Assembly (NCBI GenBank): GCA_934754445.1
Contig: CAKVHZ010000004.1
Span: forward strand, 30 to 64,029
Reading direction: 5' to 3'
Origin: an uncultured Clostridia bacterium
GTDB taxonomy: Bacteria > Bacillota > Clostridia > Christensenellales > UBA1242
Length of the DNA stretch: 64,000 nucleotides
Positions 25,060-62,256 of this stretch are shown piece after piece. Every line of letters begins with the position of its first letter. Position 1 is the first letter of the stretch. Both the position numbers and the translations under genes were made by a program. The notes under the pieces are model-generated. The model was not told the origin of the DNA. It worked only from the letters and a program-made list of their open reading frames with translations, and searched no databases.

Positions 25060-25068
25060 AAATTTTAT

Positions 25069-26575: not shown

Positions 26576-26587
26576 AAGGAGAAAGTT

Positions 26588-26884: not shown

Positions 26885-26917
26885 GTTTAACCTATGATTT
26901 TTTTGTAAGGAGTTTTT

Positions 26918-27610: not shown

Positions 27611-27655
27611 AAAAATATATGTCGGGCGAGTTATATCCAACAAGGTAGGTATGGT

Positions 27656-28423: not shown

Positions 28424-28485
28424 TGTAAATAAATTGACAGCAAATGTTTTTTGCCTTAAAAATTTTGTTAAAAATATGAAAATAA

Positions 28486-28530
28486 AAAATCGCTAAAACC
28501 TTAGGAATATAAATGGTTTTAGCGATTTTT
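28486..28530. terminator. Bidirectional terminator downstream of tRNA-Thr
   Basis: 15-bp stem aaaatcgctaaaacc / ggttttagcgatttt. On the minus strand it is followed by a T-run. Confidence 0.75.
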
Positions 28531-28577
28531 AATGAGTGGAGCTAACGAGCAGACTCGAACTGCCGACCTTTCGCTTA
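28518..28577. repeat. attR: direct repeat overlapping the 3' part of the intact tRNA-Thr
   Basis: Identical to 21614-21673. It covers tRNA nt 36-76 plus 19 nt downstream. Confidence 0.9.
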
Positions 28578-28612
28578 CCAAGCGAATGCGCTACCTACTG
28601 CGCCACGTTAGC
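28537..28612 (-). tRNA. tRNA-Thr (anticodon GGU)
   Basis: The reverse complement folds as a 76-nt cloverleaf: acceptor GCTAACG/CGTTAGC, D arm GCGC-AGTAGGTA-GCGC, anticodon arm TTCGC-TTGGTAA-GCGAA, T arm GGCAG-TTCGAGT-CTGCT, with encoded CCA. Confidence 0.9.
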
Positions 28613-33176: not shown

Positions 33177-34275
33177 ATGATTAATTTAGATTTATTTAAT
33201 AGTTTAGAAAAAAAATATAACACGATAAAGGAGTGTCTTTGAAAAAGATAATATAGAACTAGAAGATTTAAAAAAACAAATAGAGGCCGAAACCGACTAT
33301 AAAAAAATTATAGAAATAAATAAAAAAATATCTAGTATAGATAAAAAAGCAACTCAATTTGTTTTACTTACAAAAATTATTAACAATACAAAAGAAAGTT
33401 TAAAACTACTTGATAGTGAAGAATTTAATTCTTTAAAAATAGAAGAACAAGAATTGTTAACTAACATTATAGAAAGTGATATTAAAAAAACACAAGAAAT
33501 TGTTGATAAATTGTTTTTAGTTATTATGCTCTCAAGCGAGTATGATTTTAATGATGCCATTGTAACTCTTCATTCGGGTGCAGGGGGAACAGAAAGTTAC
33601 GATTTTGTAAGTATGCTTTATAGAATGTATACTAAATATTGCGAAAATGAAGGGTTAAAGATTTCAGTTTTAGAGTTATCTCAAGAAGATGTAGGAATTA
33701 AAAGTATAACAATAAAAGTTAGTGGAGATTTTGCTTATGGAAAATTAAAAAGCGAAAAAGGAGTTCATAGATTAGTCAGGATTTCGCCTTTTGATAGCAA
33801 CAAGCGTAGACACACAACTTTTGCTAGCGTTGATGTTATTCCAGAAATTGAAAATGATAACCTAATTGAAATAAATAGTGATGATTTAAAGATAGACACT
33901 TTCCGTAGTGGTGGTGCTGGTGGGCAACATATAAATAAAACTGAAAGTGCTGTTAGAATAACTCACATTCCAACGGGGATAGTAGTAACTTGTCAAAACG
34001 AAAGAAGTCAAATTCAAAACAAAGAGCAGGCTCTAAAAGTTTTAAAGAGTAAACTTTATATTATAAAAGAACAGCAACACTTAAATAAAATAAGTGAAAT
34101 TACAGGGAATTTACTTAAAATTGAGTGGGGAAGTCAAATTCGTAGTTATGTTTTTTGCCCTTACACTATGGTTAAAGACCATAGAACAAATTATGAAACA
34201 AGTGATGTTGAAGGTGTTATGAACGGAAATTTAGAAGATTTTGTTCTTGCTTATTTAATACAAAAAAGTGCTTAA
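33177..34275 (+). CDS. prfB: Peptide chain release factor 2, requires a programmed +1 frameshift at 33240
   Basis: ORF0 ATG 33177 ... CTT TGA (33237-33242), preceded by SD-like AAGGAG with a 3-nt spacer. The +1 frame from 33241 runs into the ORF carrying SPF and GGQ (RSGGAGGQHINKTESAVR) motifs. Confidence 0.9.
33228..33243 (+). promoter_or_regulatory. prfB autoregulatory +1 frameshift site
   Basis: AAGGAG-tgt-CTT-TGA-a. The architecture matches the E. coli AGGGGG-uau-CUU-UGA-C site. Confidence 0.85.
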
Positions 34276-37647: not shown

Positions 37648-38040
37648 CTAAATTAAAAATAATAAAATTAAAGATAAAAAAGTTATAATAGAAGACACAT
37701 TCAAATCTACTTTTTTATTTTTAGCAAAATTTATTATATTCATTATAAGACTGGTTACACAAAGGCCAGCACAAACAAAAAACCAAATTCCAAAAAATGC
37801 TCTACTAGTTACTCCACAAAGTAATAAGAATCTCATAAACAAAGCCATTATTATAGAAATTGTTGCAAAGGTTAGTGCCAAATATTTTTTAGAAAAAGCA
37901 AGACCAAAAAAATTATTGGTGCTAACATTTCTATTGCTATAAGAAACGGCATCTAGTTTTCTTTCTTCATTTTTATTATTTTTTTGATATTCTACTTCAA
38001 CATCATCATCTAATATTATTCTATCATCGTAACTTGTCAT
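37648..38040 (-). CDS. Small membrane protein
   Basis: 130 aa from the ATG at 38040, with three hydrophobic segments. Translationally adjacent to comFC. Confidence 0.5.
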   Translation of the reverse strand: MTSYDDRIILDDDVEVEYQKNNKNEERKLDAVSYSNRNVSTNNFFGLAFSKKYLALTFATISIIMALFMRFLLLCGVTSRAFFGIWFFVCAGLCVTSLIMNIINFAKNKKVDLNVSSIITFLSLILLFLI

Positions 38041-38284
38041 ATAATTATTATATAAAATTAATTTATAAAAATCAACTATTAACACTAAATTTTTGTTAAG
38101 AGTTTTGTGTAAAAAAACTATAATAAAAAATAAATGTTAACTTTTAGCGCTTCTGTTGCCCTTATTTTATATGATAAAATTTGAACGAGCGAAAATTTTA
38201 TTTTATTTATAATAGGTCAAAAAATATTATCATTATTAAACTTATAGATATAAATTGAAAAATCAACTAATATAATAAATTGAG

Positions 38285-40945
38285 ATGGTAACAAATTATT
38301 GGACAAAAAGTGCTGAAGAAACAATATTAAATTTAAACAGTAAATATAGTGGTTTAACGCAAAAACAGGCAAAAGAAAGACTTCGTGAAAACGGACAAAA
38401 TAGTTTACCCGAAGGCAAAAAGAAAAGTGTTTTTGTAAAATTTTTGTTGCAGTTTAAAGATGTAATGGTTTTAATTCTATTAATTTCAGCTATTATTTCG
38501 GTAACGGTATCTTTAATAGAAAAGACTTATTCTAATTTATTTGAAGGCGGAGTAATTTTTTTAATCGTTATTGTTAATGCTTTAATTGGGACAATCCAAG
38601 AAAATAAGGCTGAAGACGCAATAGAAAATTTAAAGAAAAGCACTGAACCTTACTGTAAAGTAATTCGAGAAAATGAAGTTATAAAAATAAAAACAAAAGA
38701 TTTAACCATTGGAGATATTGTTGTTTTAGAAGCGGGTGATATTGTCCCGGCCGATTTAAGACTAATTGAAACGCATAGTTTAAAGTGTGACGAGAGTGCG
38801 CTTACTGGGGAATCTTTACCTAATAACAAAAATGCAGATATAGTTTTAAATGTTGATACACCTTTAGCAGATAGAAAAAATATGGCTTATTCTTCAACGA
38901 TAATTAGTTATGGTAGAGGCTTAGGAATTGTTACAAATATAGGAGTTAATACCGAAATAGGTAAAATTGCAACATTATTAACTTCTTCCGAAAAAGATTT
39001 AACTCCATTAGAAAAATCTATTAAAAAAGTTGGAAAAATTATTTCTATAGCGGTGGTTTCTATAGCAATTATTATTTTCTTGATAGAAATATTTTTTGCT
39101 GATACCATTGATATTTTAAATGCTTTTATTGGCTCAGTTACTTTAGCGGTAGCGGCAATACCAGAAAGTTTACCAGCAATTATCACCATAATTATGGCGG
39201 TAGGGTTGCAAAATTTGGCAAAAAAAGGTGCTATTGTTAAAAGATTAAAAGCGGTTGAAACTCTTGGTAGTTGTGAAGTAATTTGCTCAGATAAAACAGG
39301 AACGCTTACACAAAATAAAATGGAAGTTGTGAAACTTGTTTATAACTTAAAAGTTGATACTGATTTTAAAAAAAGTAGTAAGGAATTTGACTGCTTAATA
39401 AAAACTATGATTTTATGTAACAACAGTTATTTAGATAGTCACAATAAAATTATAGGCGACCCAACAGAAACTTCCCTTATAAATTTTGCCATAAAAAACA
39501 ATATAAATGTAAAAAATCTTGAAAAATTTGAAAGAATTTATGAAATTCCGTTTGATTCTAACCGAAAATTAATGTCTACAGTAAATGTAATTGATAATAA
39601 CAAGATTTGTTTTACTAAAGGTGCGTTTGATAAATTAATTAAAAAATGTAAATATATTTTAATAAATGGTCAAGTTAAAAAATTAAACGACATTTATATT
39701 AAAAAATTAAATAACCTAAATAATGCATTGTCTAATGATGCTTTAAGAGTTTTAGCGTATGCTTATAAAGGGGTAGAAAGTTTTGATAATTTGGAAGAAG
39801 ACTTGGTTTTTGTCGGCTTAAGTGGAATGATAGACCCACCAAGACTAGAAGCATTTAAAGCGATAGAACGATGTAAAGATGCTGGATTAAAACCTATTAT
39901 GATAACAGGTGACCACCCAGATACTGCTTTTGCAGTAGCAAAACAACTAAAAATTGCTGAAAATAAAAATCAAGTTTTAGTTGGCACAGATTTAGATAAA
40001 TTAACTGATGAAGAATTATCACAAAAAATTAATGATTATAAAGTTTTTGCTCGAGTTAGCCCCGAAAACAAAGTTAGAATTGTTAAAGCGTTAAAAAAAC
40101 AAAATAAAATTGTTGCTATGACGGGTGATGGAGTAAATGATGCTCCTAGTTTAAAAATTGCCGATATTGGTGTAGGCATGGGAATAACGGGAACTGATGT
40201 AACTAAAGATGTTGCTGACATAATTGTTACTGATGATAATTTCGCCACAATAGTTTTGGCGGTGGAAGAAGGACGAAAAGTCTATGCAAATATTCAAAAA
40301 ACTATTCAGTTTTTGTTAAGCACAAACATAGTTGAAGTTGCTACAATGTTTTTATCTATTATGTTTTTCCCCAATTTTAGTTTTTTAGTTCCTGCACAAT
40401 TATTGTTTATAAATTTAGTAACCGATAGTTTACCTGCATTTAGTTTAGGTGTAGAAAAGGCTGAAAAAGATATTATGAAAAATAGACCACGAAAAACAAA
40501 TGAAACAATCTTTTCGCGTGGCATTGGTGTAAACATAATTTATCAGTCTATAATTCAAGTTATAATAGTTATGCTTGTTTACATTTATGGCATTAAAACA
40601 GCCAGTAATGAAGTGGCATCTACTATGGTGTTTATGGTAATTAGTTTTATGCAGTTGCTTCATTCAATAAACTGCAAAACAAATAAAAGTATATTTGATA
40701 TTAACATATTTAATAATAAAACATTTAACCTAAGTTTTATCGCAATAATGATACTTAATATTTCAGTGTTCACTTTACCTATTTTTAAAAACCTATTTAA
40801 TGTAGCCTCGTTAAATGTTAATCAATGGATTATGGTTATAATTTGTTCACTTGCCATTATTCCATTAGTAGAAATTTCAAAGTTAATAATAAATTCTATT
40901 AATAAAAAGAAACAATTTAATAATCAGATTGATGTTGACAAATAA
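38285..40945 (+). CDS. P-type ATPase, Ca2+-transporting type (P2)
   Basis: CSDKTGTLT phosphorylation site, TGES, MITGDH, TGDGVNDAPSL and a 10-TM layout. 886 aa. Confidence 0.9.
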   Translation: MVTNYWTKSAEETILNLNSKYSGLTQKQAKERLRENGQNSLPEGKKKSVFVKFLLQFKDVMVLILLISAIISVTVSLIEKTYSNLFEGGVIFLIVIVNALIGTIQENKAEDAIENLKKSTEPYCKVIRENEVIKIKTKDLTIGDIVVLEAGDIVPADLRLIETHSLKCDESALTGESLPNNKNADIVLNVDTPLADRKNMAYSSTIISYGRGLGIVTNIGVNTEIGKIATLLTSSEKDLTPLEKSIKKVGKIISIAVVSIAIIIFLIEIFFADTIDILNAFIGSVTLAVAAIPESLPAIITIIMAVGLQNLAKKGAIVKRLKAVETLGSCEVICSDKTGTLTQNKMEVVKLVYNLKVDTDFKKSSKEFDCLIKTMILCNNSYLDSHNKIIGDPTETSLINFAIKNNINVKNLEKFERIYEIPFDSNRKLMSTVNVIDNNKICFTKGAFDKLIKKCKYILINGQVKKLNDIYIKKLNNLNNALSNDALRVLAYAYKGVESFDNLEEDLVFVGLSGMIDPPRLEAFKAIERCKDAGLKPIMITGDHPDTAFAVAKQLKIAENKNQVLVGTDLDKLTDEELSQKINDYKVFARVSPENKVRIVKALKKQNKIVAMTGDGVNDAPSLKIADIGVGMGITGTDVTKDVADIIVTDDNFATIVLAVEEGRKVYANIQKTIQFLLSTNIVEVATMFLSIMFFPNFSFLVPAQLLFINLVTDSLPAFSLGVEKAEKDIMKNRPRKTNETIFSRGIGVNIIYQSIIQVIIVMLVYIYGIKTASNEVASTMVFMVISFMQLLHSINCKTNKSIFDINIFNNKTFNLSFIAIMILNISVFTLPIFKNLFNVASLNVNQWIMVIICSLAIIPLVEISKLIINSINKKKQFNNQIDVDK

Positions 40946-40969
40946 ACTTTTTCGTGATAACATTCCATT

Positions 40970-41530
40970 ATGAGTAAAATATTAGAGAAAATTAGATATT
41001 TCTTTTTTGGTGAAAAATTAATTAGTGAAAAATTAGCCGATGTTATGAAAGATAAAAATTTAACTTCTAACGAAAAATACACAAACATGCTAAAGTTAAT
41101 TGGTAATTATTTTGTTAATGAGCATAATAACAATGTTGTTACAACGGTTTATGAACTACATTATGAAGAATTTGTAGATAAAAATAATAAGGTTGATAAA
41201 GACAAATATAATAAAATTTTTAAAGAAGAAGATGGTTTATTAACATATATAAATTTAAGTTATTTTATTGAATATCTGGTTGGTTTAAAGTTAGATGAAA
41301 ATATTTTAACCATTGATGAAAAGAATATTTTAGATAATGTTAGAACTTTAGAAAACAATAACTTTAGAGACATTTCTAAAAAAAGTTTAAACTCTAATAG
41401 TTATTTCCACTTAAATAGTGCTTATACTGATTGCTTAAACGAAGGGGAAATTTTAACCAATAAGATAAAAACATATTACAAAAAACTAACAAATTGTTAT
41501 GATGAAATTGATGAACTTTATGGATTTTAA
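40970..41530 (+). CDS. Hypothetical protein
   Basis: 186 aa ORF, no motif recognised. Confidence 0.55.
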   Translation: MSKILEKIRYFFFGEKLISEKLADVMKDKNLTSNEKYTNMLKLIGNYFVNEHNNNVVTTVYELHYEEFVDKNNKVDKDKYNKIFKEEDGLLTYINLSYFIEYLVGLKLDENILTIDEKNILDNVRTLENNNFRDISKKSLNSNSYFHLNSAYTDCLNEGEILTNKIKTYYKKLTNCYDEIDELYGF

Positions 41531-41535
41531 AAAGG

Positions 41536-41561
41536 GTCTGTTTTAATTGACAGACTTTTTT
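41536..41561 (+). terminator. Rho-independent terminator
   Basis: Stem gtctgt / acagac followed by a T-run. Confidence 0.7.
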
Positions 41562-41580
41562 ATTTTTTTTATAATTAATC

Positions 41581-42378
41581 ATGCAAAAAGGAAAAAAAGT
41601 TGTAGTAATTACTGGGTCGAGTAGTGGAATTGGTCTTGCTACTAGTAAATTTTTAAAACAAAAAGGTTATGTTGTTTATGGAATAGCAAGGAATATAGAT
41701 AGTGAAAATATTACGAGTTATGCTTGCGATGTAACCGATAACGAAAAAATGAAAAGTATCTTTTTAGATATTTTTAATAAAGAAGGAAGAATTGATTATT
41801 TAATAAATAATGCAGGTATTGGAATTTCTGGTGCGATAGAGCATACGACTGATGCTGATATTGAAAAAATATTTAATATAAATGTTATAGCGCCTATAAA
41901 ATTAAGTAGAGAAATTATTCCTTTTATGCGTAAAAATAATTTTGGCAGAATTATAAATATTAGTAGTGTTGCTAGTGTTATCCCGCTTCCTTTTCAAGCA
42001 TGTTATTCAGCAACTAAAGCAAGTATTCAAAATTTTTCTTTAGCATTAAATAATGAAGTTAAAGATTTTAATATTCGTGTTAGTGCTGTGCTTCCGGGGG
42101 ATACAAAAACTGGGTTTACTGATGCAAGACTAAAAAACAAAGTTTTAGAAGATGAAAACTATAAAAAACGAATAAACAATTCAATTTCTAAAATGGAAAA
42201 AGATGAAAGAAAAGGCAAAGACCCAATAACGGTAAGTAAAGTAATTTATAGAGTTATGAAAGCAAAAAATCCACCACTTACAAAAACAGTGGGGTTTAAA
42301 TATAAACTTGTTGTATTTTTATCAAAAATATTACCACAAAAATTATTAATAAAAATTATAAAAAAGATTTATGGATAG
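41581..42378 (+). CDS. Short-chain dehydrogenase/reductase (classical SDR)
   Basis: TGSSSGIG cofactor motif, NNAG, and catalytic YSATKAS (YxxxK). Confidence 0.85.
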   Translation: MQKGKKVVVITGSSSGIGLATSKFLKQKGYVVYGIARNIDSENITSYACDVTDNEKMKSIFLDIFNKEGRIDYLINNAGIGISGAIEHTTDADIEKIFNINVIAPIKLSREIIPFMRKNNFGRIINISSVASVIPLPFQACYSATKASIQNFSLALNNEVKDFNIRVSAVLPGDTKTGFTDARLKNKVLEDENYKKRINNSISKMEKDERKGKDPITVSKVIYRVMKAKNPPLTKTVGFKYKLVVFLSKILPQKLLIKIIKKIYG

Positions 42379-42387
42379 GGGATTATT

Positions 42388-43575
42388 ATGGATTTATTTA
42401 AAAAATGTTATGTAAAAAATCGTTATGATGAAGTAAAGGAAAGTGGACTATATCCTTATTTTCATGAGTTAAACTCTAAGCAAGACACTGAAGTTGTTAT
42501 GGAAGGAAGAAAAACCGTAATGATAGGCTCTAATAACTATTTAGGTTTAACTTATCATCCAGAAATTATCAAAGCGGGTGTAGATGCCTTAGAAAAATTT
42601 GGAACAGGTTGCACAGGTTCAAGATTTTTAAATGGGACACTAACACTACATAAACAATTAGAAAAGGAATTAGCAGACTTTTTACATAAAGAATCAGTTA
42701 TAACTTTTGGAACAGGCTTTCAAACAAATTTAGGAATAATCTCGGCTATTGCTGGTAGGAATGATGTTATTTTATGTGATAAAGAAAATCATGCAAGCAT
42801 TTATGATGCTTGCAGACTAAGTTATGCAAAAATGATTAGATATGAGCATAGCGATATGCAAGATTTGGAAGACAAATTAAAATCAGTTGAAGAAGATAAA
42901 GGCATTTTAATTGTAACTGATGGTATTTTTAGCATGACTGGGGAAATTTGTAATTTGCCTAAAATAGTTGAACTTGCTAAAACTTATGGTGCAAGAGTTA
43001 TGGTAGATGATGCCCATAGTTTAGGTGTTTTAGGAACTCATGGCAGGGGAACGGCTGAATATTTCAATTTAGAAAATGAAGTTGATATTTATATGGGAAC
43101 ATTTTCAAAATCTCTTGCAAGTTTAGGTGGATATATGGCATCAAGTAAAGAAGTTGTTGAATTTGTTAGACACACTTCAAGACCTTTTATTTTTAGTGCT
43201 AGCATGACTCCAGCAAGCGTTGCTTGTGCTAAAAGAGCATTAGAGATTTTGATTAGAGAACCAGAAAGAATAAAAAATTTAAGAGAAATTTCAGCATATA
43301 TGCGTAAAAAATTAAAAGAATATGGTGTTAAAATTATAGAAATGAATGCTGATACGCCGATTATCCCTATTTATACATATCAAGATGAAAGGACTTTTAA
43401 GGCTTGTAAAATGTTATTAGAACGTGGTGTTTATGTAAACCCAGTTATATCTCCAGCAACTCCATTAGGACAAAGTTTACTTCGAACTAGTTACACAGCA
43501 ACTCACACTAAAGAGCAAATAGATTACGCATCTAAACAAATTAGCGAAGTTTTACAAATTTTAGAAAATGAATAA
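42388..43575 (+). CDS. Alpha-oxoamine synthase, serine-palmitoyltransferase-like
   Basis: SNNYLGL, GTGCTGSRFLNGT, HASIYD and PLP-lysine FSKSLASLGG motifs. GSRFLNGT is SPT-like rather than BioF- or KBL-like. Confidence 0.7.
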   Translation: MDLFKKCYVKNRYDEVKESGLYPYFHELNSKQDTEVVMEGRKTVMIGSNNYLGLTYHPEIIKAGVDALEKFGTGCTGSRFLNGTLTLHKQLEKELADFLHKESVITFGTGFQTNLGIISAIAGRNDVILCDKENHASIYDACRLSYAKMIRYEHSDMQDLEDKLKSVEEDKGILIVTDGIFSMTGEICNLPKIVELAKTYGARVMVDDAHSLGVLGTHGRGTAEYFNLENEVDIYMGTFSKSLASLGGYMASSKEVVEFVRHTSRPFIFSASMTPASVACAKRALEILIREPERIKNLREISAYMRKKLKEYGVKIIEMNADTPIIPIYTYQDERTFKACKMLLERGVYVNPVISPATPLGQSLLRTSYTATHTKEQIDYASKQISEVLQILENE

Positions 43576-43681
43576 AATTATTGACAAAGTTAAATTTTTT
43601 TGTTAAACTTGTCTAGTCTAATTATTTTGACAGAATGAATTTATTTCATTTTAATAAATATTTTATTGAAAGGAGCAGATT

Positions 43682-43828
43682 ATGAAAAGAACTTATCAAC
43701 CAAAGAAAAGAAGTAAAGTAAAAGTTCATGGTTTTAGAAAAAGAATGCAAACATTTAATGGTAGAAAGGTTTTAAGTAGAAGAAGAAGACGTGGTAGACA
43801 CACTTTAACAGTTTCTAACAAACACTAA
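43682..43828 (+). CDS. rpmH: 50S ribosomal protein L34
   Basis: [50 protein letters not shown] aaaggag. Below the ORF-track length cutoff. Confidence 0.95.
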
Positions 43829-43830
43829 TT

Positions 43831-44178
43831 ATGATTAAAAAAGAAAATAGACTAAAAAAAAGAAAACAATTTAACTATTTATATAAAAATGGTAAGTTTG
43901 TAGGTAATGAATATTTATCTTTGGTCTATTTACCCTTAAAAACAAAAAATTTTAAAGTTGGTTATAGTGTTTCTAAAAAAGTGGGTAAAGCAACAGTTAG
44001 GAATAAAACTAAAAGGCGTTTAAAAGAATGCGTATTAAAATTTAGCGACAAAATTAAAAACGAATTTTACATTATTGTTATTCCTAAGCCAAGCATTTTA
44101 AATCTAACTTTTAATGAAATTTACTCAAATTGTTATGATTTGTTTAAAAAAGCAAATTTACTAAATGATAGTAATTAA
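43831..44178 (+). CDS. rnpA: Ribonuclease P protein component
   Basis: ENRLKKRKQFNYLYKNG N-terminal signature, directly after rpmH. Confidence 0.9.
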   Translation: MIKKENRLKKRKQFNYLYKNGKFVGNEYLSLVYLPLKTKNFKVGYSVSKKVGKATVRNKTKRRLKECVLKFSDKIKNEFYIIVIPKPSILNLTFNEIYSNCYDLFKKANLLNDSN

Positions 44179-44440
44179 AGTTCTATTTTATCCACTTAAA
44201 ATTTTTTGTCTATTTCTAGTTTATTTGTATAAGATTTTAATATCTCCAATGCTTCCTAAATCTTGCAAATTTACACCAAGTTGTTCGACTTATTGTATTT
44301 TGGCTATTAAAAGATTTGGTGTTGTCGTTGGAGTTTTTTATACTGTTAAACGCTTATTAAAATGCAATCATTTTTCTAAACAAAGTGGCAAAGATTATGT
44401 ATTAGATAATATAAAAGGAGAAATCAAATGGCTAATTTAA
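44165..44440 (+). CDS. yidD: Membrane protein insertion efficiency factor YidD
   Basis: ISPMLPKSCKFTPSCSTY signature. Overlaps the end of rnpA. Confidence 0.85.
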   Translation: MIVIKVLFYPLKIFCLFLVYLYKILISPMLPKSCKFTPSCSTYCILAIKRFGVVVGVFYTVKRLLKCNHFSKQSGKDYVLDNIKGEIKWLI

Positions 44441-45570: not shown

Positions 45571-45580
45571 AGAGGTGTTT

Positions 45581-46456
45581 ATGAAAAGTTTTGAATTTAC
45601 AGGTAAAAATATAGAAAAAGCCATTGAAAATGGTTTAAAAGAATTAGGTAAAAAAAGAGAAGATGTAGATATTTCTATTTTGAGCGAAGGCGGATTATTT
45701 AGTAAAGCAAAAGTAAGACTAAGTTATGAAGAAGAAAATATTGATAATGAAATTAAAGAAATTATTGATAAAAATGAAGACTTAAAAGAAGAATACCCAG
45801 AAAATATTTGTTCTTGCGGTTGCGAGCATGGTAGCGAATGCAAATGTGAAGACTGTGAATGTGACGAATGTGAAAGTGATGATGAATGCACTTGCGAAGA
45901 AGAATGTAATTGTGATGAATCTTGTGATTGCGGTTGTATGGAAGGTGAACCTTGCTCGTGTCAAGAAGAAGTTAAAGAAAAAAAAGAAAGAATATATTTA
46001 ACTGATGAAGAAGTAATTGATAAAATTCAAGAAATATTTAAAAACATTTTTAAATGCTTAGATATTGATGCTAGGGTTATGGTTTTAAATAGCGATGAAG
46101 CCTATGAAGTAAAAATTTCAGGCGAAGAGAAAGTTTCATGCTTAATTGGCTATAGAGGCGAAGGTTTAAATGCTTATCAATTAATTATCAACAACTTTTT
46201 AGAATTAAAAAATAAATCTAAAAAAATATTGATTGATGTAGAAAATTATAGAGATAAAAGAGAAGAAAGTTTAAAAGCACTAGCAATAAGAATTGCTAAA
46301 AAGGTTTTAAAAACGAAACGTCGTCATAAATTTGAACCTATGAGTGCTTATGAAAGACACGTAATTCACGAGACTTTAGCAAACTTTAATGGTGTTACAA
46401 CTCATAGTGAAGGTGTAGAACCTCATAGATGCTTAATAGTAGATTTAGAAAAATAA
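45581..46456 (+). CDS. jag: Jag/KhpB RNA-binding protein (Jag_N + KH + R3H) with a Cys/acidic-rich insertion
   Basis: N-terminal FTGKNIEKAIENGLKELG, C-terminal KH/R3H (FEPMSAYERHVIHETL). The insertion is at aa ~79-129. Confidence 0.8.
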   Translation: MKSFEFTGKNIEKAIENGLKELGKKREDVDISILSEGGLFSKAKVRLSYEEENIDNEIKEIIDKNEDLKEEYPENICSCGCEHGSECKCEDCECDECESDDECTCEEECNCDESCDCGCMEGEPCSCQEEVKEKKERIYLTDEEVIDKIQEIFKNIFKCLDIDARVMVLNSDEAYEVKISGEEKVSCLIGYRGEGLNAYQLIINNFLELKNKSKKILIDVENYRDKREESLKALAIRIAKKVLKTKRRHKFEPMSAYERHVIHETLANFNGVTTHSEGVEPHRCLIVDLEK

Positions 46457-47315: not shown

Positions 47316-49163
47316 ATGATAATGGATAAAAAATTAAAAAAAGGTGTTAATAATAAAGCGATTATTCTTCTTGTTGTGGCTATAGTTTTGTTTGTTGCGA
47401 CTATAATAAGAATAACTTTTGCATGGTATACAGATAAAAAATCTTATAAAGGCGAACTTGCTTTTGGCAATGTAGAATTAAATGTAACCGATGGTGTGGT
47501 AGAAGAAACCAAAACTTTAAATTATTCAATTATTCGTGATGGCGAAACTTTAAATTCGGGTAAAGTTTACCCCGGCGATAAAGTAAGGGTTAATATAAAT
47601 GTTTCGGTAACTGAAAATTCCGACCCCGTTTATTACATAATGGCTCTTACCGATAGTAGAAAAATGTTTGAAAATGCTTGTTACTTTAAAGATGGTAGTG
47701 ATATTTATGTTTTAAATGATAGTGGAACATATTTAAACACAAATAGAACTAGTCAAGTAACAACTAAGTATGTTGGCAAAATAAATTCATCAACCGAAAC
47801 CCATGAAATTACTATAGATAATGAAATATTAAATATAGACTTGTTAAATGAAGAAAATAATTCAACAAAGCTTAGTTGCAATATTTATGCTATTCAACAA
47901 GCAAATTTAACCGAACAACAAGCACAAACACAATTACTAAGTAAAATTGGTATAATTGGCGATTATACGCAAGCAGATTATATAGAGTCAACTGGTGCTC
48001 AATATATAGATACTGGTGTTAATATTTCACCAACAGTAACTGATTGGAATGTAGAAATGAGCACGATGTGGACGGATACTTCTACAAGGCAATTAATGGG
48101 TTATAATGCTGGTGCTGGTGGATACTTTGGTGTTTCAAATAGCACTAATTATGAAATTGGGGGGACTAAATTAAGTGTTACTCCTAGCACTACAAGTTAC
48201 GATACAATAAAATGGGGTTTAAGTAATAGTAAGTATACATTAAGCGTAAATGGAATAGAAAAAGAAAGAACGAAAGATGCTACTGCTGGAAACATATTTT
48301 TATTTAATTTAACAAATAATTTATCATATGGTTATGCTTGCAAAGCAAAAATGGAATATTGTAAAATAACAGTAAATGGAGAAATAGTAAGAAATTTCGT
48401 TCCAGTTGTTCGTAACAGCGATGGAAAGCCTGGAATGTATGATTTAGTTACAAAAAGGTTTTACACCAATGGCGCAAGTGGAGTAGACTTCACATGTCAC
48501 GGGGGTGGGGTAACAGTTTTTGGCAATAGCACCCAAAACGGAACACCTTCTACAACTAGTCCTAAAACGCTAACTTGTGTTGGCGCATTAATTACTTCAA
48601 GCAATGCTTCAAGTTTTGGTGCGGATAGTCCTAAAGTTGGTAAATATGCTGTTAGTGCTGGTAACAATAATTATATATTTATAAATGAACCTTTAAGAAG
48701 TGTAAAAAATAATAAAGGGCAAGTTATTGCTGATGAATTAGATTTAAAAACTAAAACAGTTACAAGACGAGTTGCATCATTTAAAATTTTAGGAACAAAC
48801 GATTTCACTTATAGTGGAACAAGCACAAATAACAAATCTACTTATGGAATAATAATTTATAATCCATCAAAATTTGGTAATTATGTGAAAGGTGATAACT
48901 GGGAGGATATTGGTGATAAAATATTTAGAGGAGACTATGGGGCATGCTCACATTTTTCATTCGCAACGGCTGGTTATGGCGATAGCGATAATGAAGGATT
49001 TGATATAGCATTTTCTTCAAGCCCTCACTATGTTGCATTAAGAAGAAAAACTGATGATAAAACTGTTGCAGGGTTTAAAACTTGGCTTCAAGAAGAAAAT
49101 TCAAAAGGAACACCTGTTGAATTATTGTTAGCAAAATATACACCCGAAAAAGAACAATATTAA
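47316..49163 (+). CDS. Secreted protein: TasA/camelysin-like N-domain with SipW-type signal, fused to a large C-terminal region
   Basis: N-terminus KK..hydrophobic..ITFAWYTDKKSYKGELAFGNVELNV resembles the SipW-cognate/TasA-camelysin signature. VYPGDKV block. The true start may be the ATG at 47322. Confidence 0.6.
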   Translation: MIMDKKLKKGVNNKAIILLVVAIVLFVATIIRITFAWYTDKKSYKGELAFGNVELNVTDGVVEETKTLNYSIIRDGETLNSGKVYPGDKVRVNINVSVTENSDPVYYIMALTDSRKMFENACYFKDGSDIYVLNDSGTYLNTNRTSQVTTKYVGKINSSTETHEITIDNEILNIDLLNEENNSTKLSCNIYAIQQANLTEQQAQTQLLSKIGIIGDYTQADYIESTGAQYIDTGVNISPTVTDWNVEMSTMWTDTSTRQLMGYNAGAGGYFGVSNSTNYEIGGTKLSVTPSTTSYDTIKWGLSNSKYTLSVNGIEKERTKDATAGNIFLFNLTNNLSYGYACKAKMEYCKITVNGEIVRNFVPVVRNSDGKPGMYDLVTKRFYTNGASGVDFTCHGGGVTVFGNSTQNGTPSTTSPKTLTCVGALITSSNASSFGADSPKVGKYAVSAGNNNYIFINEPLRSVKNNKGQVIADELDLKTKTVTRRVASFKILGTNDFTYSGTSTNNKSTYGIIIYNPSKFGNYVKGDNWEDIGDKIFRGDYGACSHFSFATAGYGDSDNEGFDIAFSSSPHYVALRRKTDDKTVAGFKTWLQEENSKGTPVELLLAKYTPEKEQY

Positions 49164-52282: not shown

Positions 52283-55225
52283 ATGAAAAAATTTATAGTA
52301 TTTGTCTTAATTTTAGTTGTTACAGTAAGTTTAGGTGTTACTACTTTTTATTTTTTAAGAGATAACGAAGAACTTGTTGTTAATACTAATGGTTATGTTT
52401 ATTTAAACAAAGGTGATACATTAGAAATTGATGCCGAATTAAAACATGCAAAAGTTGGCAACGAACTAGTGATTACTGCTTTAACTGAAGGGGTTTTGGA
52501 ATGGAACCCAGCATTAAATAGTTTTACTGCTGAAGAAGGCGGTGCAACTGTTGTTGAAATTAGAACAAAAAACAACAATAAAATTAACCCTGTTTATATT
52601 GAAGTAAGTGTTGGTAATGGTATGAAAGAAGCCCCTTACTATATAGATAGTGAAGAAGATTTGTTAAGTATTGGTAGTGAAGCAGATGGCAACATTTTCA
52701 CTGGTAGTGACAACTACATTTTAATGCAAGACATCACTATTACAAACTCTATAACTCCAATTTTAAATAATGGAGAATTTACAGGTAGTTTAAATGGTAA
52801 TGGTTATTCTATTAATAATTTAAAAATAGAAACTAGCGAAGGTGTTGAAAACGCAGGTTTATTTGCTAAAATTGCTTCTACTGGTGTTATTACAAATTTA
52901 GCATTAAAAAATGTTTCTATTAATGGTCAATTTAAAACTGCTGGTGGTTTTGCTGGAATTAACGAAGGAACAATTACTAGAAGTGAAGTTGTTAGCGGTA
53001 GTGTAACTTCAACATTACAAGATGCTAGCACTGGTGCTATTTGTGGTATTAACAAATATTCAGTAGCAAACTATGGTAGAATTGATAGATGTTATAGTAA
53101 TATTTCTGTTAGCGGAACAACTTATGTTGGTGGTTTAACTGGAACAAACAATGGTGGCATTGTAATTAATAGTTATGTTAAATTAGATGCTGACAACAAA
53201 ATTACTTCTATTTTGGCTGGAAGCAATGTTGGTGGTTTAATTGGTTTAAATACAAATAATGGTGATATTGCAAGCACTGTTAAAAACTGTTATGCTTTAG
53301 GCGATGTTGTTTTAGCAGAAGGCGTTAATGCTGAAGAATGCAAAGTTGCTGCTTTAATTGGTTTTAATAAAGAAATTTCTCAATATAAATCAAATTATAT
53401 TATGGGCTTATATACTAACTCAAGTTTACAAGGAGCAAATCATCAATATAGTTTACCAGGAACTCCTAGCGAAACTGAAAAATTAAACTTTAGAGGAATT
53501 AACACAAGTTTCCCTATGGATGCAGAACATAAAATAGATATTAATAATTTAAAATCATTTATGTCTAAAAATGTTAGCGAAGATGCTACAAATGTAGTAT
53601 ATTGGGATTTCAAAAATGTATGGTTACTAAGTAGCGAAAACGATGGATATCCTTATTTAAACAAAAACGGAGCAAATGTTCCAGATGATATTAGTGTTGC
53701 TTACGACCCTAAAATAATTAGTAATGAAACAGAATTTATTAATTTCATGAATGCAGTTAATAATCCAGATGGAAATCCACAATCTTATTATACTTTAACT
53801 GCCGACTTAGATTTATCTAATTCAACAGCATTTATGCCTATAGGAACTTCAACAAGACCTTTTAATGGCACTTTTGACGGAAATGGTCATACAATAAAAA
53901 ATGTAAAATTATCAACTTCTAGCATTAATGCTATAACTGGTAGTAAATATGTTGGTTTATTTGGAAGAATTACAAGTGTTTCTTCAGTTAAAAATTTAAC
54001 AGTAGAAAACATTATAATTGAAGACGGCGCAGTATATGCTGGTAGTATAGTTGCTTATAATGAAGGAACTATTGATAATTGTAAAGTTACTCAAGTTTCT
54101 TTAAATAAAGAAGTTATTAACATTAAAGCAAGTTTCGCAGTAGGCGGAATTGCTGGGGCTAGTTTTGGTCATATAAATAATTGTAAAGTTATTAATCAAA
54201 CAATTGTTTCAACATCTAACCAAGGCAATAGCAGCACTTGTGGTGGAATTGTTGGAAGTAACGGCTTAGAAGCAAACTCAAATAATGCTACAGTAGAAAA
54301 TTGTGGTGTTGTAACTTGCTATATTTATGATAGTAAAAATCTAACAGAATATCCAAAAAATTATAATTTCCAATTATTAAAAGAATTTGGCTTTAAATAT
54401 AATTATGTTGGCGGTATTGCTGGTTCTAATGCTTATTTAATTACAAGTAACTATGTTTATAAAACAGACATAATGATGAATCAATATAACGTTAACGGAA
54501 CTGGTGCAGGTATTGTTGCTTATAGTAAAAGTTTAGACTTAATTAATCAAAGTTTAGCAGAAGTAAGTTACAATAAAGTTTTAGGTGGAACAATTACTGG
54601 TCACTATAGTTGTGGTTTAATATCTAACTTATATGGTATTAGTGAATTCAACCATGTAGAAATGGATAACATTCATGGCTTAATTAGTATCGGTTTAGTT
54701 GGTAAATTATCATTGTCAGGCGGTGTAACGGGAGCTAGACTTAACAACTGTTTCTCAAAATCTTATTTAACATTAACTGATAAAAAACAAGGTGGAACCG
54801 CTGGTATGGTTGGTGATGCCGAATATAAAAACGAAAAAACAGAAGCAGGTTATACTAAATTCGGTCAAATATTCTCTGCTTGTAGTTTTGATACAGGTTT
54901 AAAATATGCTTATTATGATGCTTTAGTATCATACAGAAACGAAACAAATTTCTTATGGAACAATAGAACTTATGGTATTGGTAACAACTTAATTTGGGAA
55001 GAAACCACTGGTGCTAAATACGATAACACTATTTTCTATTTTGATACAAAACAAACAAATTTAAAATGGTTTAGTCACGAAGAATGCACTTTAATGACGA
55101 ACGGAGAAGTTGTAAGACAAGCATTTACAAGTTTTGGATTTAATACTTCTATGTGGACTTTTGAAGAAGGTGTAAATTCTTATCCTACAATTGCTGGTTT
55201 ACCAGAAATAATAGAAGCAGAATAA
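52283..55225 (+). CDS. Large surface protein with GLUG-motif repeats
   Basis: N-terminal anchor, then recurring VGGLTGTNNGGI, VGGLIGLN, VGGIAGASFGHINNC and VGGIAGSNAY type GLUG motifs. 980 aa. Confidence 0.7.
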   Translation: MKKFIVFVLILVVTVSLGVTTFYFLRDNEELVVNTNGYVYLNKGDTLEIDAELKHAKVGNELVITALTEGVLEWNPALNSFTAEEGGATVVEIRTKNNNKINPVYIEVSVGNGMKEAPYYIDSEEDLLSIGSEADGNIFTGSDNYILMQDITITNSITPILNNGEFTGSLNGNGYSINNLKIETSEGVENAGLFAKIASTGVITNLALKNVSINGQFKTAGGFAGINEGTITRSEVVSGSVTSTLQDASTGAICGINKYSVANYGRIDRCYSNISVSGTTYVGGLTGTNNGGIVINSYVKLDADNKITSILAGSNVGGLIGLNTNNGDIASTVKNCYALGDVVLAEGVNAEECKVAALIGFNKEISQYKSNYIMGLYTNSSLQGANHQYSLPGTPSETEKLNFRGINTSFPMDAEHKIDINNLKSFMSKNVSEDATNVVYWDFKNVWLLSSENDGYPYLNKNGANVPDDISVAYDPKIISNETEFINFMNAVNNPDGNPQSYYTLTADLDLSNSTAFMPIGTSTRPFNGTFDGNGHTIKNVKLSTSSINAITGSKYVGLFGRITSVSSVKNLTVENIIIEDGAVYAGSIVAYNEGTIDNCKVTQVSLNKEVINIKASFAVGGIAGASFGHINNCKVINQTIVSTSNQGNSSTCGGIVGSNGLEANSNNATVENCGVVTCYIYDSKNLTEYPKNYNFQLLKEFGFKYNYVGGIAGSNAYLITSNYVYKTDIMMNQYNVNGTGAGIVAYSKSLDLINQSLAEVSYNKVLGGTITGHYSCGLISNLYGISEFNHVEMDNIHGLISIGLVGKLSLSGGVTGARLNNCFSKSYLTLTDKKQGGTAGMVGDAEYKNEKTEAGYTKFGQIFSACSFDTGLKYAYYDALVSYRNETNFLWNNRTYGIGNNLIWEETTGAKYDNTIFYFDTKQTNLKWFSHEECTLMTNGEVVRQAFTSFGFNTSMWTFEEGVNSYPTIAGLPEIIEAE

Positions 55226-59425: not shown

Positions 59426-61363
59426 TCAAGACCTATTATAAAGTTTGTTTAGATAAATCTTGTCTATCTTTTCCTGTTTTTCATAAAACTTTAATGCGTT
59501 TAATTGAAAAGCATATATTTCTTCTTTACTTAAATTTTGTAGACTATTAGCATCTAGAATATCGCTAGAATATATTTTATCGTTAAATATTCCAGATAGA
59601 TTAGAAACAAAAACCGAATTTTTTATATCTTCACTAAAAATGTTATTTCCTTGTGCAAAATTTTTGTTATATTCTAAGCCAAATAAATTACAAATGGTAG
59701 GATAAATATCGTAAGTAGAGCAGAATGTATTGTTACTACCACTGCCTAAAGTTTTATCGTAGATTATAAAAGGTATGTTATATAAACTTGTGTCTAGAAT
59801 GTTGTAGTTTTTACTTCCGTATCTAACCATTAAATTTGTTTCATCATAATAACAATTGTGGTCGGCAAACAAAACGATTGCTGTGTTATCCATTAAATTA
59901 TTATCGTTTAAATATTTTATTAAATTGGCAATCATTTTGTCGGTATCCATGCTTGCACATTTATATTTCTTTAAAAAGTTATAATATGTTTTGTCGGTAG
60001 GGAATTTATAACCTTGACTTGTTAAGTAATTTATTATTTCAGGTAAATGTTCTTCGTAGTAGCCGTAATATTCTTCATATCTTTCGTTGTATTTTGAGTA
60101 GGGACCATGTGTTCCAAAGGTAGTATAAAAGCTAAAAAATCGTTTGTCTTTTGGAGCAAACTGCTCTAGGCAAGTATTCAAAAAATCTTGTTCTAAATAA
60201 GCATTACCAAAATCTGTGTCGTTTCCAAGTTTAGAATCTTGAATGCCGTATAAACTATCAAAACCAAATTTTTTGTTGACTACATTTCTAGAATAAAAGT
60301 TAATATCATAAGAATGAAAATAATTTGCTGTATAACCATTGTCTTTAAATAAATAAGCCAGTGAATTTTTTGGAGCAAAATCTTCACTTCTTGCTAAATT
60401 TTGAAAATCAGTTTTTTTAGGGAAGTTACCAAGCAGACTGATATCTTCGCTCATATTTGTTTTGTTGTATGCTCTAAAGTTAGTAAAAGTATACCCATTA
60501 TTGTATGCTAAATCATAAAGTGTAGGAGTGCAAATAGGGTCTATTGCAAACCAATCAAAACTTTCAAGCATTAAAACTATTAAGTTTTTATCTTTAAGTA
60601 AACTAGAATTGTTACTTTCAATTACTCCATCATTTAAAAATGTCTGTAATTCTTGTCTTTCTTCTTTTGTTAAAGTTGTGTCTTTAATAAATACATCTTC
60701 TAAACTTTTTATATAAAACCCAAAAGTCCCAAATTTTTTATATGCTTTTTGTTTAAATTGAAAGTTTTTATATAAATATGCATCACTTTCTAAAACATAG
60801 AAGGCATTTGTTGTTTCGGTATCGGCAAGAATAGAATATGAAATTAAATTGCTTGTTAGTCCACAACTAATAAAAGCTAAAAATATTGCAAAAACCAAAC
60901 AAAATGAATAGCGTCTTTTAGATTGAGTTTGTGCTTTTAAGTTTAGTTTGTTGGTTTTAGTTAAAGAGAATAATAGCATTATAAATATAGTAAGGATTAA
61001 AGCATTTACGATTAAGGCCTTATAATTTATAAATGATGGTTTGAAAACCTTTGTGGCTTCTCCAGCAATTTTCAATAAATCCAAACTAAAAACATCACTA
61101 AAAACTGCATAATAACTTGCATTTACAATATTTAATATAAACTGAACGGAAAGTAACACTATAATATAAGCAATTTTACTTTTTCTACCTTTCATTAAAA
61201 ATATAATTGCGGAATTTATTAAAATGTAAGCTAAATCGAACAAAAAATAACTAGGTAAAAATCCAAAATTTAAAGACCAAAAAGCAACAATCTCTAAACT
61301 TATTGTAGATAAAGCAAATATTAATACATATTTTAGTTTATTTAATATTTCTTTCTTTTCCAT
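59426..61363 (-). CDS. LtaS-family sulfatase-fold membrane enzyme (lipoteichoic acid synthase-like)
   Basis: About 5 N-terminal TM segments followed by an extracellular sulfatase-like domain (LIVLMLESFDWF, FADHN). 645 aa. Confidence 0.75.
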   Translation of the reverse strand: MEKKEILNKLKYVLIFALSTISLEIVAFWSLNFGFLPSYFLFDLAYILINSAIIFLMKGRKSKIAYIIVLLSVQFILNIVNASYYAVFSDVFSLDLLKIAGEATKVFKPSFINYKALIVNALILTIFIMLLFSLTKTNKLNLKAQTQSKRRYSFCLVFAIFLAFISCGLTSNLISYSILADTETTNAFYVLESDAYLYKNFQFKQKAYKKFGTFGFYIKSLEDVFIKDTTLTKEERQELQTFLNDGVIESNNSSLLKDKNLIVLMLESFDWFAIDPICTPTLYDLAYNNGYTFTNFRAYNKTNMSEDISLLGNFPKKTDFQNLARSEDFAPKNSLAYLFKDNGYTANYFHSYDINFYSRNVVNKKFGFDSLYGIQDSKLGNDTDFGNAYLEQDFLNTCLEQFAPKDKRFFSFYTTFGTHGPYSKYNERYEEYYGYYEEHLPEIINYLTSQGYKFPTDKTYYNFLKKYKCASMDTDKMIANLIKYLNDNNLMDNTAIVLFADHNCYYDETNLMVRYGSKNYNILDTSLYNIPFIIYDKTLGSGSNNTFCSTYDIYPTICNLFGLEYNKNFAQGNNIFSEDIKNSVFVSNLSGIFNDKIYSSDILDANSLQNLSKEEIYAFQLNALKFYEKQEKIDKIYLNKLYNRS

Positions 61364-62256
61364 TATGGTATGTATATTTTTACTCCTTTTTCTAATGATT
61401 TAAATTTAAATGAACCATTTTGCCCACATTCGCCGTCTAAATTTATTTCGGCATTATTTTTTAATTCTATTTCAAAATCTTTAAGTCTTAAATATGTAAC
61501 TCGGCGTTTTTTCTTATTATAGTTTAAACCAAACAAAAATAATTTTGCAATACTAAACATACTAAGTAAACTAAATTTGTTTTTTTTGGGGCATTCAATC
61601 ATTACAACATCAACATATCCATCATCTAAACGGGCATTTTTGTTTATTTTAAATCCGCCAACATAACGAGAATTTACTATTAAAAGCAAAGCACAATTTT
61701 GTTCAATAATTTCATTATCATGCTTTAATTTTATATGTAAAGGTTTGCTTTTAAATATTTTTTTTGCCCCACTGAAAAAGTAGGCAAGTCGTCCCCAAAA
61801 CTTTTTGTGAGTTTGTTTTGTTTCATAACTTATTTCACATCCTAGTCCTGTGGCACAAACATAAATTCCATACTTATCATTAACTTTAAAAATATCGTGG
61901 TTAAAAACTTTTCCATTTAATATTACTTTAACCGCCTTTTTAATGTTGCGTGGAATTTTTAAACTATGTGCGACATCATTAGTAGTTCCAGTAGGTATAT
62001 AACCAATAACTGGAGCATTTTCTTTTTCAGCGATAGCATTAATTACTTCGTTTAAAGTTCCATCTCCACCAGATACAACAAAAGTGTCATATTTATTATA
62101 GTTCTCACTTGCAATTATACTTGCGTGGTGTGGGCGTTCGGTTCTCATAACATCAACTTTATTGTATTTAGTTTTTAATTTTTCTTCAATATAATGCTCT
62201 TTTTTAGCCACTCTACCTTTTCCACTATTAGGATTGTAAATAAATAAGCATTTCAT
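61363..62256 (-). CDS. DAGK-family lipid kinase (YegS/DagK-like)
   Basis: VVSGGDGTLNEV motif. 297 aa. Its stop overlaps the start of the LtaS-like gene. Confidence 0.8.
   Translation of the reverse strand: MKCLFIYNPNSGKGRVAKKEHYIEEKLKTKYNKVDVMRTERPHHASIIASENYNKYDTFVVSGGDGTLNEVINAIAEKENAPVIGYIPTGTTNDVAHSLKIPRNIKKAVKVILNGKVFNHDIFKVNDKYGIYVCATGLGCEISYETKQTHKKFWGRLAYFFSGAKKIFKSKPLHIKLKHDNEIIEQNCALLLIVNSRYVGGFKINKNARLDDGYVDVVMIECPKKNKFSLLSMFSIAKLFLFGLNYNKKKRRVTYLRLKDFEIELKNNAEINLDGECGQNGSFKFKSLEKGVKIYIP

Follow-up and report, generated by a model that had tools for sequence, protein, structure and literature searches.

A predicted serine palmitoyltransferase and 3-ketodihydrosphingosine reductase gene pair in anaerobic Bacillota

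Serine palmitoyltransferase (SPT) from the Gram-negative bacterium Sphingobacterium multivorum (SmSPT; PDB 3A2B, 8GUH) is a soluble, single-domain alpha-oxoamine synthase of about 395 residues from a Bacteroidota/delta-proteobacterial subgroup (Bacteroides, Porphyromonas, Bacteriovorax, Myxococcus), and its active site has been described from high-resolution structures (PMC10196870). In Bacteroides thetaiotaomicron, the 3-ketodihydrosphingosine (KDS) reductase KdsR has been characterised as BT_0972, a classical short-chain dehydrogenase/reductase (SDR) of about 265 residues whose gene, judged by locus tags, is not a neighbour of spt (PMC9278070). The spt genes of the Rhodobacteria type (Sphingomonas, Caulobacter) are instead adjoined by a dedicated acyl carrier protein (ACP) and acyl-ACP synthetase (acpR, aasR), together with bcerS and cerR, and reduction in these systems follows N-acylation and relies on an unrelated reductase, CerR (PMC9386255, PMC11087976). 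In sulfonolipid synthesis, SulA or cysteate acyl-ACP transferase (CFAT; PDB 7U7H, 28EH; PMC9304779), acting with 3-ketocapnine reductase (PMC11211663), follows the same logic of an alpha-oxoamine synthase step and then an SDR step. Here we analysed a 64-kb stretch of DNA from an uncultured Clostridia bacterium (contig CAKVHZ010000004.1; the whole stretch is called the window), in which an SDR gene (41581..42378, + strand, 265 aa) is followed by the gene for a pyridoxal phosphate (PLP)-dependent alpha-oxoamine synthase (AOS; 42388..43575, + strand, 395 aa), exactly where a first-pass annotation of the window had placed them. From sequence comparison, active-site identity, the modelled fold and gene neighbourhood, we consider it probable that the pair constitutes a two-step module of SPT and KDS reductase that would make sphinganine. 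We also incline, if only slightly, to the broader view that many anaerobic Bacillota have long been able to make sphingoid bases, and probably sphingolipids, de novo, and that this trait, strongly conserved but so far overlooked, extends to Christensenellales-type Clostridia of gut and rumen and to the wall-less Acholeplasmataceae/Mariniplasma.

Family matches were sought for window open reading frames (ORFs) of at least 110 aa, and those of the two genes rule out chance (Pfam adh_short, PF00106, E=9e-46 for SDR; Aminotran_1_2, PF00155, E=1e-56 for AOS). All motifs quoted by the first-pass annotation were found, TGSSSGIG and YxxxK in SDR and SNNYLGL (48-54), GTGCTGSRFLNGT (72-84), HASIYD (135-140) and FSKS (239-242) in AOS, with K241 as the Schiff-base lysine. 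The proposal that AOS fits SPT better than BioF or KBL was borne out by every score that we compared. The best NCBIfam model, by 117 bits, was the CFB-type SPT (SerpalmtaseCFB, NF047600; 540.4 bits), which exceeded the KBL (407) and BioF (TIGR00858, 386.5) models by 130-150 bits; the other models were the beta-proteobacterial SPT (423), the alpha-proteobacterial SPT (341), ALAS (262) and CqsA (219). Against PDB sequences, AOS scored 432 bits with SmSPT, about 291 with the Sphingomonas SPTs, about 277 with KBL, 221-227 with the CFATs and about 199 with BioF, and its identity was 52.9% to SmSPT in an alignment almost free of gaps over 376 residues, 40% to the Sphingomonas SPTs, 34-38% to KBL and 27.7% to E. 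coli BioF.

Active-site residues point the same way. We tabulated these positions in the window AOS, in eight anchor sequences (four of them KBLs) and in 80 relatives, the best 80 of 265 stretches obtained by scanning one genome per GTDB species. The checklist derived from the SmSPT structures comprises N52, G80, S81, F83, L84, F114, H138, S185, D210, A212, H213, T241, S243, K244, M271, A274 and the carboxylate-binding arginine (PMC10196870). The corresponding residues of AOS (N49, G77, S78, F80, L81, F111, H135, S182, D207, A209, H210, T238, S240, K241, I268, A271 and R366) are identical at every position but M271, which is isoleucine in the window protein and in all 80 relatives and which in SmSPT touches the substrate through its main chain only (PMC10196870). 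Among these residues, K241, H135, D207, H210 and R366, which align with SmSPT K244, H138, D210, H213 and R367, are common to the alpha-oxoamine synthase family; the same catalytic His, Asp, His, Lys and Arg, and the same first reaction, characterise the Rhodobacteria-type SPTs, to which identity is about 40%. More telling are six positions (SmSPT G80, S81, L84, A212, S243 and A274) at which all four KBLs differ from SPT, carrying S, V, I, S/C, G and N, respectively: the window AOS has the SPT-type residue at all six (G77, S78, L81, A209, S240, A271) and the KBL-type residue at none, and the relatives are SPT-type without exception at five of them and in 78 of 80 cases at A212. A single residue separates SulA from SPT, Lys281 in the former being alanine in the latter (PMC9304779). 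This position, equivalent to SmSPT A274, is alanine in the window AOS (A271) and in 80/80 relatives, so that, unlike SulA/CFAT with its shared fold, AOS carries the SPT residue; its CFAT scores (221-227 bits) are also much lower than that with SmSPT (432).

The first-pass annotation had left the phylogenetic placement to be made, and a bootstrapped neighbour-joining tree of SPT, KBL and BioF anchors placed AOS with neither BioF nor KBL: the Bacillota clade was recovered in 100% of replicates, its union with SmSPT in 99.2%, a group of all SPTs in 86.4% and a union of the Bacillota clade with KBL in 0% (CFAT, ALAS, CqsA and the KBL and BioF proteins of Bacillota were compared through PDB and NCBIfam scores only). 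The Bacillota clade kept its 100% support in a distance tree with 70 additional representatives of 50%-identity clusters, and the 60 best 50%-cluster representatives that we checked were all nearer to SmSPT than to KBL or BioF. The AlphaFold model of AOS (pLDDT 86.1) is consistent with a three-domain alpha-oxoamine synthase fold; its best match was SmSPT (TM 0.94; root-mean-square deviation 1.8-1.9 A), followed by the Sphingomonas SPTs, and SPT, KBL, BioF and ALAS structures among the 50 best Foldseek matches listed spanned TM values of 0.85-0.94. On these grounds we predict that AOS is an SPT of the soluble, homodimeric Bacteroidota/delta-proteobacterial type. It resembles SmSPT in length, single-domain architecture, contacts to PLP, serine and carboxylate, and predicted fold, and likewise has no adjacent ACP gene; it differs in its host phylum, the monoderm or wall-less Bacillota, in forming a separate clade, in the isoleucine at M271, in its NF047600 score of 540 bits against a cut-off of 640, and in its operonic arrangement with a reductase gene. 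Many of the 50%-cluster representatives (P0123, P0130, P0135, P0159 and others) are larger, at 650-1170 aa, and combine an N- or C-terminal AOS domain with further domains, suggesting that fused SPT-like systems exist in other parts of the family.

The SDR carries the cofactor-binding motif TGSSSGIG at residues 11-18 (a G12-x3-G16-x-G18 loop), the tetrad N101-S129-Y142-K146 and a C-terminal helical extension (197-264); G12, G16, G18, N101, S129, Y142 and K146 are invariant in 20/20 sequences, and PGDTK (172-176) and MxxDE (205-209) are invariant motifs specific to the family. Its best NCBIfam model was NF049977 (KdsR; 237.5 bits), which stands for the Bacteroides enzyme BT_0972 (PMC9278070) and which it matches, like that enzyme, over the full length (model positions 3-267 of 267). 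KdsR was also the top model for nine of nine further SDRs from AOS loci (176-306 bits, margins of 5-57 bits), eight of which adjoin AOS; the remaining one, from locus L001, is a divergent paralog that lies about 0.9 kb upstream. Unlike BT_0972, none of the nine reaches 400 bits. No threonine dehydrogenase model appeared among the top 25 families of the SDR, and no KDS reductase appeared among its PDB sequence matches or the PDB fold matches listed. The nearest folds to its model (pLDDT 90.6) were 3m1a, an uncharacterised Streptomyces SDR, and human 17beta-HSD1 (TM 0.85-0.89), so the predicted fold resembles that of the lipophilic-ketone reductases, the subclass in which C-terminal helices enclose a lipophilic ketone. 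An arginine following beta-strand 2 is the usual signature of NADP(H) use; such a residue, R37, is present in the window SDR and is not invariant in the family. With KdsR as its best model and its adjacency to AOS conserved in two gene orders (see below), the SDR can be read, as the first-pass annotation had read it, as a putative 3-ketosphinganine-type reductase. Several Clostridia metagenome-assembled genomes (MAGs) also encode, upstream of the pair and on the opposite strand, a second SDR with 33-40% identity to that of the window (L001:1013-1807, L002:1482-2261, L003:7860-8762 and L012:4270-5037, all on the - strand). Only the L001 copy was scanned; KdsR was its top model (176 bits), and this divergent SDR could be another reductase or a paralog with a different substrate.

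The two genes appear to form a self-contained bicistronic unit, as judged from consensus matches to expression signals. A terminator-like hairpin (41530..41561, + strand; a 13-pair stem followed by a T-run) lies directly past the stop of an unrelated 186-aa orphan ORF (40970..41530) and probably insulates the pair from upstream transcription. It overlaps a putative sigma-70-type promoter (41547..41575, + strand; TTGACA-17 nt-TATAAT, 12/12 matches), the sole 12/12 site within 38000-44300. The -10 hexamer ends 5 nt 5' of the SDR ATG and the interval holds no Shine-Dalgarno sequence, so the mRNA probably has little or no leader. The gap between SDR and AOS is 9 nt (42379-42387), the A of the AOS ATG being the tenth base past the SDR stop codon. 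The Shine-Dalgarno sequence of AOS (AGGGGA, 42377..42382, + strand, 5 nt before the ATG) overlaps that stop codon (TAG, 42376-42378), which suggests translational coupling of the two genes on one transcript. A separate promoter-like site for rpmH lies beyond the AOS stop, and an Rfam search around the pair detected neither riboswitches nor other RNA elements.

The genes are far from confined to this window. AOS is present in at least 265 species-level genomes, and the best 80 relatives (65-76% AOS identity) are all from MAGs, labelled Clostridia, Christensenellaceae/Christensenellales, Eubacteriales, Acholeplasmataceae, Mariniplasma, Tenericutes, Bacilli or Bacillota and recovered from the guts of humans (Hadza, Nepal), goat, sheep, buffalo, rabbit and reindeer as well as from anaerobic digesters, sediments and marine samples. 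A KdsR-like SDR adjoins AOS in about 33-35 of these 80 loci and does so in two gene orders: SDR precedes AOS in Clostridia-type MAGs, as in the window, and follows it in Acholeplasmataceae, with gaps of 1-4 nt or overlaps. The linkage is reciprocal, since two SDR homologs found independently on long contigs (L087, L088) are each directly followed by AOS. Because the two genes have stayed neighbours in two Bacillota classes even though their order has switched, a functional link between SDR and AOS is well supported. In Acholeplasmataceae/Mariniplasma (L092:10001-12614, L093:1975-3968, L057-L080) the AOS-SDR pair sits between rpoC and rpsL-rpsG-fusA-tuf, and in 13 loci of this group it is followed by a truncated membrane protein of the formate/nitrite-transporter (FNT) family. 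We clustered all ORFs within 6 kb of AOS in the 80 loci and found no gene beyond SDR to be broadly conserved there; neighbours specific to particular lineages were the FNT-family membrane protein, DegV, iscR-nifS-nifU and pseudouridine-metabolism genes (a PfkB kinase and an Indigoidine_A family protein). Cultured carriers of AOS are Mariniplasma sp. M4Ah and the Tenericutes bacteria MO-XQ and MZ-XQ, the latter two represented by contigs of about 2.1 Mb; AOS precedes SDR both in L093, a contig of the M4Ah assembly, and in L092, a metagenome contig encoding a protein identical to that of MO-XQ.

The composition and divergence of the pair speak to its history. The G+C content at third codon positions is 0.13 for SDR and 0.16 for AOS, compared with 0.13-0.20 for housekeeping genes, and AOS identity to Acholeplasmataceae (65-67%) falls between those of EF-G (60%) and EF-Tu (75%) from the same loci; from this we conclude that the gene is native and subject to strong purifying selection. 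We also considered a recent acquisition from Bacteroidota by horizontal transfer and reject it, given the host-like composition and the depth and Bacillota-wide extent of the clade. AOS is dispensable all the same, since one lineage has deleted it. The deletion is seen in a close relative, L086 (contig ERZ15610027 NODE_10, 356 kb), whose flanks are fully syntenic, whose SDR is 83% identical to that of the window and in which rpmH begins 163 bp past the SDR; when the nucleotides of L086:9949-11179 are aligned with window positions 41530-43895, the match breaks off at the SDR stop and is regained some 26 nt short of the AOS stop codon. L086 has thus lost AOS by a precise deletion that left a remnant of about 26 nt from its 3' end. 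Three relatives (L089, L090, L091; AOS identity 85-92%) keep the SDR-AOS pair at the same site, and the L086 SDR is intact, with all family-invariant residues present.

By homology with SmSPT, K241-bound PLP would form an external aldimine with L-serine, whose carboxylate would be held by H135 and R366 and whose side-chain hydroxyl would be held by the PLP phosphate and a water network involving N49 and S240. Decarboxylative Claisen condensation with a long-chain acyl thioester would then yield KDS. The acyl donor is probably acyl-ACP, because no dedicated ACP gene is present, and might also be acyl-CoA. The SDR, by homology and gene linkage, would reduce the 3-keto group of KDS to give dihydrosphingosine (sphinganine), probably with NADPH. 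N-acylation to ceramide and addition of a head group, if they occur, would be encoded outside the scanned region: none of the window ORFs scanned is a candidate for an ACP or a ceramide synthase, or matches a biotin gene or tdh. The reductase gene is here physically coupled to the predicted spt, unlike in Bacteroides, where the two stand apart, and no acpR, aasR, bcerS or cerR of the Rhodobacteria type is linked to AOS in the 80 loci.

Several observations weigh against this interpretation. Both proteins fall below the equivalog cut-offs of their best models (540.4 against 640 bits for AOS with NF047600; 237.5 against 400 for SDR with NF049977), and the SDR margin over the runner-up, a generic oxidoreductase model (218.7 bits), is just 19 bits. 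Because the NF047600 cut-off is missed, we file AOS as a new SPT clade and not as a member of the CFB equivalog, and both AOS and SDR are best described as putative new clades of known enzyme kinds, outside the narrow equivalogs of NCBI. Adding the 70 representatives to the distance tree leaves its deepest branching without support (bootstrap about 0 at the node joining SmSPT); because of this collapse we claim no precise sister group and rely on the anchor tree and the residue signatures. A Nostoc AOS with 38.75% identity to SmSPT is a genuine BioF that makes no KDS (PMC8895605). Similarity alone is therefore insufficient, and the present case is built on a much higher identity, residue signatures and gene context. 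That context has gaps of its own: no KdsR-like SDR lies within 10 kb of AOS in 45 of the 80 loci, and in none of the 80 is a ceramide synthase, an ACP, an acyl-ACP synthetase or a head-group enzyme linked to AOS. The main observation weakening a strict one-to-one partnership is L086, where SDR has been kept in the absence of AOS, and where its function may not depend on AOS.

Some of these points also feed other explanations. The lack of a linked ceramide synthase or head-group gene, the distinctness of the AOS clade and its score under the CFB cut-off, the isoleucine at M271 in all relatives, and the low-efficiency use of Ala, Gly, homoserine and Thr by SmSPT itself (PMC10196870) would all suit an enzyme of the SPT clade that acts on other substrates (glycine or alanine; short, branched or hydroxylated acyl groups) and so leads to a non-canonical amino-alcohol lipid or signal, such as a 1-deoxy- or nor-sphingoid base. 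We regard this as unlikely, though the least so of the alternatives, given that the residues contacting the serine side chain and carboxylate (N49, G77, S78, S240, K241, H135, R366) are identical to those of SmSPT, that the acyl-pocket wall residues matching SmSPT Y27 (from the alignment) and F83 are identical too, and that the M271 contact is made by the main chain only (PMC10196870). A further alternative accepts AOS as an SPT and questions the partnership: reduction by another enzyme might come after N-acylation, in the Caulobacter order Spt, bCerS, CerR, or the SDR might act on another ketone or on scavenged keto-bases. The intact SDR of L086, the 45 AOS loci without an adjacent SDR, KdsR scores well under the cut-off with sometimes small margins over generic models, and the separation of kdsR (BT_0972) from spt in Bacteroides (PMC9278070) are all compatible with it. 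It is harder to square with an adjacency found in two gene orders and two Bacillota classes, often with overlapping or 1-4-nt junctions, which holds when approached from the SDR side, or with KdsR being the best model for 10/10 proteins tested. Nor is the SDR of the CerR type, which we take to be NDUFA9/epimerase-like, and we give this alternative only a small chance.

There remains the possibility that the pair has been misread altogether. SDR-type threonine dehydrogenases that pair with KBL exist, and such a couple would convert threonine via 2-amino-3-ketobutyrate to glycine and acetyl-CoA; alternatively, AOS would be BioF, the name '8-amino-7-oxononanoate synthase' being attached to relatives in JGI and some NCBI records. 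The KBL and BioF models do score high (407 and 387 bits). Yet they trail the SPT models by 130-150 bits, the BioF score (386.5) lies under the cut-off of that model (426) and 154 bits under the SPT score, KBL-type residues occur at 0/6 discriminating positions and grouping with KBL receives 0% bootstrap support; the SDR is a 265-aa classical enzyme and not an extended, GalE-like threonine dehydrogenase of about 320 aa, a family absent from its top 25. The first-pass annotation had remarked that no biotin genes are adjacent, and this holds more widely, with no bioA, bioB, bioD, bioC, bioH or bioW in the window or in the conserved AOS neighbourhoods. Bacterial SPTs are, moreover, routinely mis-annotated as BioF (PMC8895605). 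Residues, tree position and SDR subclass together lead us to reject the threonine dehydrogenase-KBL version, and we consider a misreading of either kind very improbable. The predicted module of SPT and KDS reductase is thus the interpretation that we retain.

Bacterial sphingolipids of the gut reach host tissues and modulate immunity and lipid metabolism, and they have been credited almost entirely to Bacteroidota. If our prediction is true, they are no monopoly of that phylum, and many Bacillota become producers, including the Christensenellaceae/Christensenellales of human (Hadza, Nepal), ruminant, rabbit and reindeer guts, joined by free-living or marine Acholeplasmataceae; it would also raise the question of what role sphingolipids play in a single-membrane or wall-less cell. 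Reports from the 1970s, with a 1970 J. Bacteriol. paper on the lipids of Acholeplasma axanthum, are said to describe a ceramide-type phospholipid in this species; if the prediction is true, the pair would supply their genetic basis, although we treat them as a lead and not as evidence. Within the literature library searched in full text, there was no report of SPT in Bacillota, Clostridia, Christensenellaceae or Acholeplasma. In databases, AOS relatives go under the names 'aminotransferase class I/II-fold PLP-dependent enzyme', 'pyridoxal phosphate-dependent aminotransferase family protein' and '8-amino-7-oxononanoate synthase', and the related SDRs are called 'SDR family oxidoreductase'. With BioF or generic aminotransferase annotations, AOS genes are missed by metagenomic surveys, and, if the prediction is true, SPT is systematically undercounted in metagenomes; a gut lipidomics preprint from 2025 found many labelled sphingolipids, yet SPT 'only in E. 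coli and B. thetaiotaomicron'. The enzymes would be of known kinds in an unexpected phylum, and the interest lies in their phyletic breadth, in the systematic mis-annotation and in immediate testability: there are cultured carriers in which the prediction can be put directly to the test, and the relative that has naturally lost AOS offers a comparison.

One further hint of sphingolipid metabolism offered by the first-pass annotation did not hold. The DAGK-family lipid kinase ORF that it pointed to exists (61363..62256, - strand; DAGK_cat, PF00781, and YegS_C, PF19279) and lies 18 kb from the predicted SPT operon on the opposite strand. Its best model is diacylglycerol kinase, it passes the cut-off for YegS/Rv2252/BmrU lipid kinases (TIGR00147, 186.6 against 118.65 bits), and it overlaps by 1 nt a gene for an LtaS-like membrane protein with a sulfatase domain (59426-61363, - strand, 645 aa; best NCBIfam match LtaS, weak at 61 bits). 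In Gram-positive bacteria, LtaS releases diacylglycerol, which DgkB recycles. Given the overlap with the LtaS-like gene and the models matched, we assign the kinase to DgkB-type diacylglycerol recycling and reject it as a sphingolipid kinase; it resembles the DgkB/YegS-BmrU kinases in its TIGR00147 score and its LtaS-like partner, and nothing ties it to phosphorylation of ceramide or sphingosine. The pairing implies a walled, lipoteichoic acid-bearing cell.

This bears on the host, which had been called Bacillota/Mollicutes-like. The window has a G+C content of 26.9%, its long ORFs are read with genetic code 11, and the nearest relatives are MAGs labelled Clostridia or Christensenellales. The Bacillota part of the earlier description stands and the Mollicute part does not, since genetic code 11 and an encoded LtaS-like enzyme indicate a low-GC Bacillota that is not a Mollicute. 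The genes around the pair are ordinary Bacillota housekeeping genes, with those for peptidase M1, prfB, tsaD, a RumA-type methyltransferase, comFC, a P-type ATPase and the 186-aa orphan ORF on the 5' side and rpmH, rnpA, yidD, yidC, jag and recD2 on the 3' side. Within this neighbourhood, prfB (33177-34275) seems split into a 21-aa leader ORF (33177-33242) and a 273-aa body in a different frame (33454-34275), which fits the programmed +1 frameshifting for which release factor 2 is well known. In the Jag/KhpB-like protein (45575-46456), the N-terminal and R3H parts are separated by an unusual insert of about 60 aa with a high content of Cys, Glu and Asp (CSCGCEHGSECKCEDCECDECESDDECTCEEECNCDESCDCGCMEGEPCSCQEE); the insert may bind metal, and a small ORF elsewhere (L014:7926-8312) encodes a comparable Cys/acidic motif.

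Other features of the window include a probable integrated element (18715-28612) beside a tRNA gene (28540-28612, - strand). Its products include a tyrosine integrase (25069-26004), a Fic/DOC protein (22371-23360), a YpsA-like SLOG protein, a DUF1963 protein and a DUF4417 protein, and several of its ORFs lack a family match. Three large proteins are predicted to be surface-exposed or secreted, one of 1698 aa with Listeria-Bacteroides repeats (12981-18077), one of 615 aa with no family match (47316-49163) and one of 980 aa with GLUG motifs and a faint similarity to the N-terminal part of M26 IgA proteases (52283-55225); together they suggest a host-associated lifestyle. Just 3' of tuf, finally, lie two tandem paralogous ORFs (3470-4483; 168 and 162 aa), each starting with MKYLANEI, the first of which has no Pfam match.

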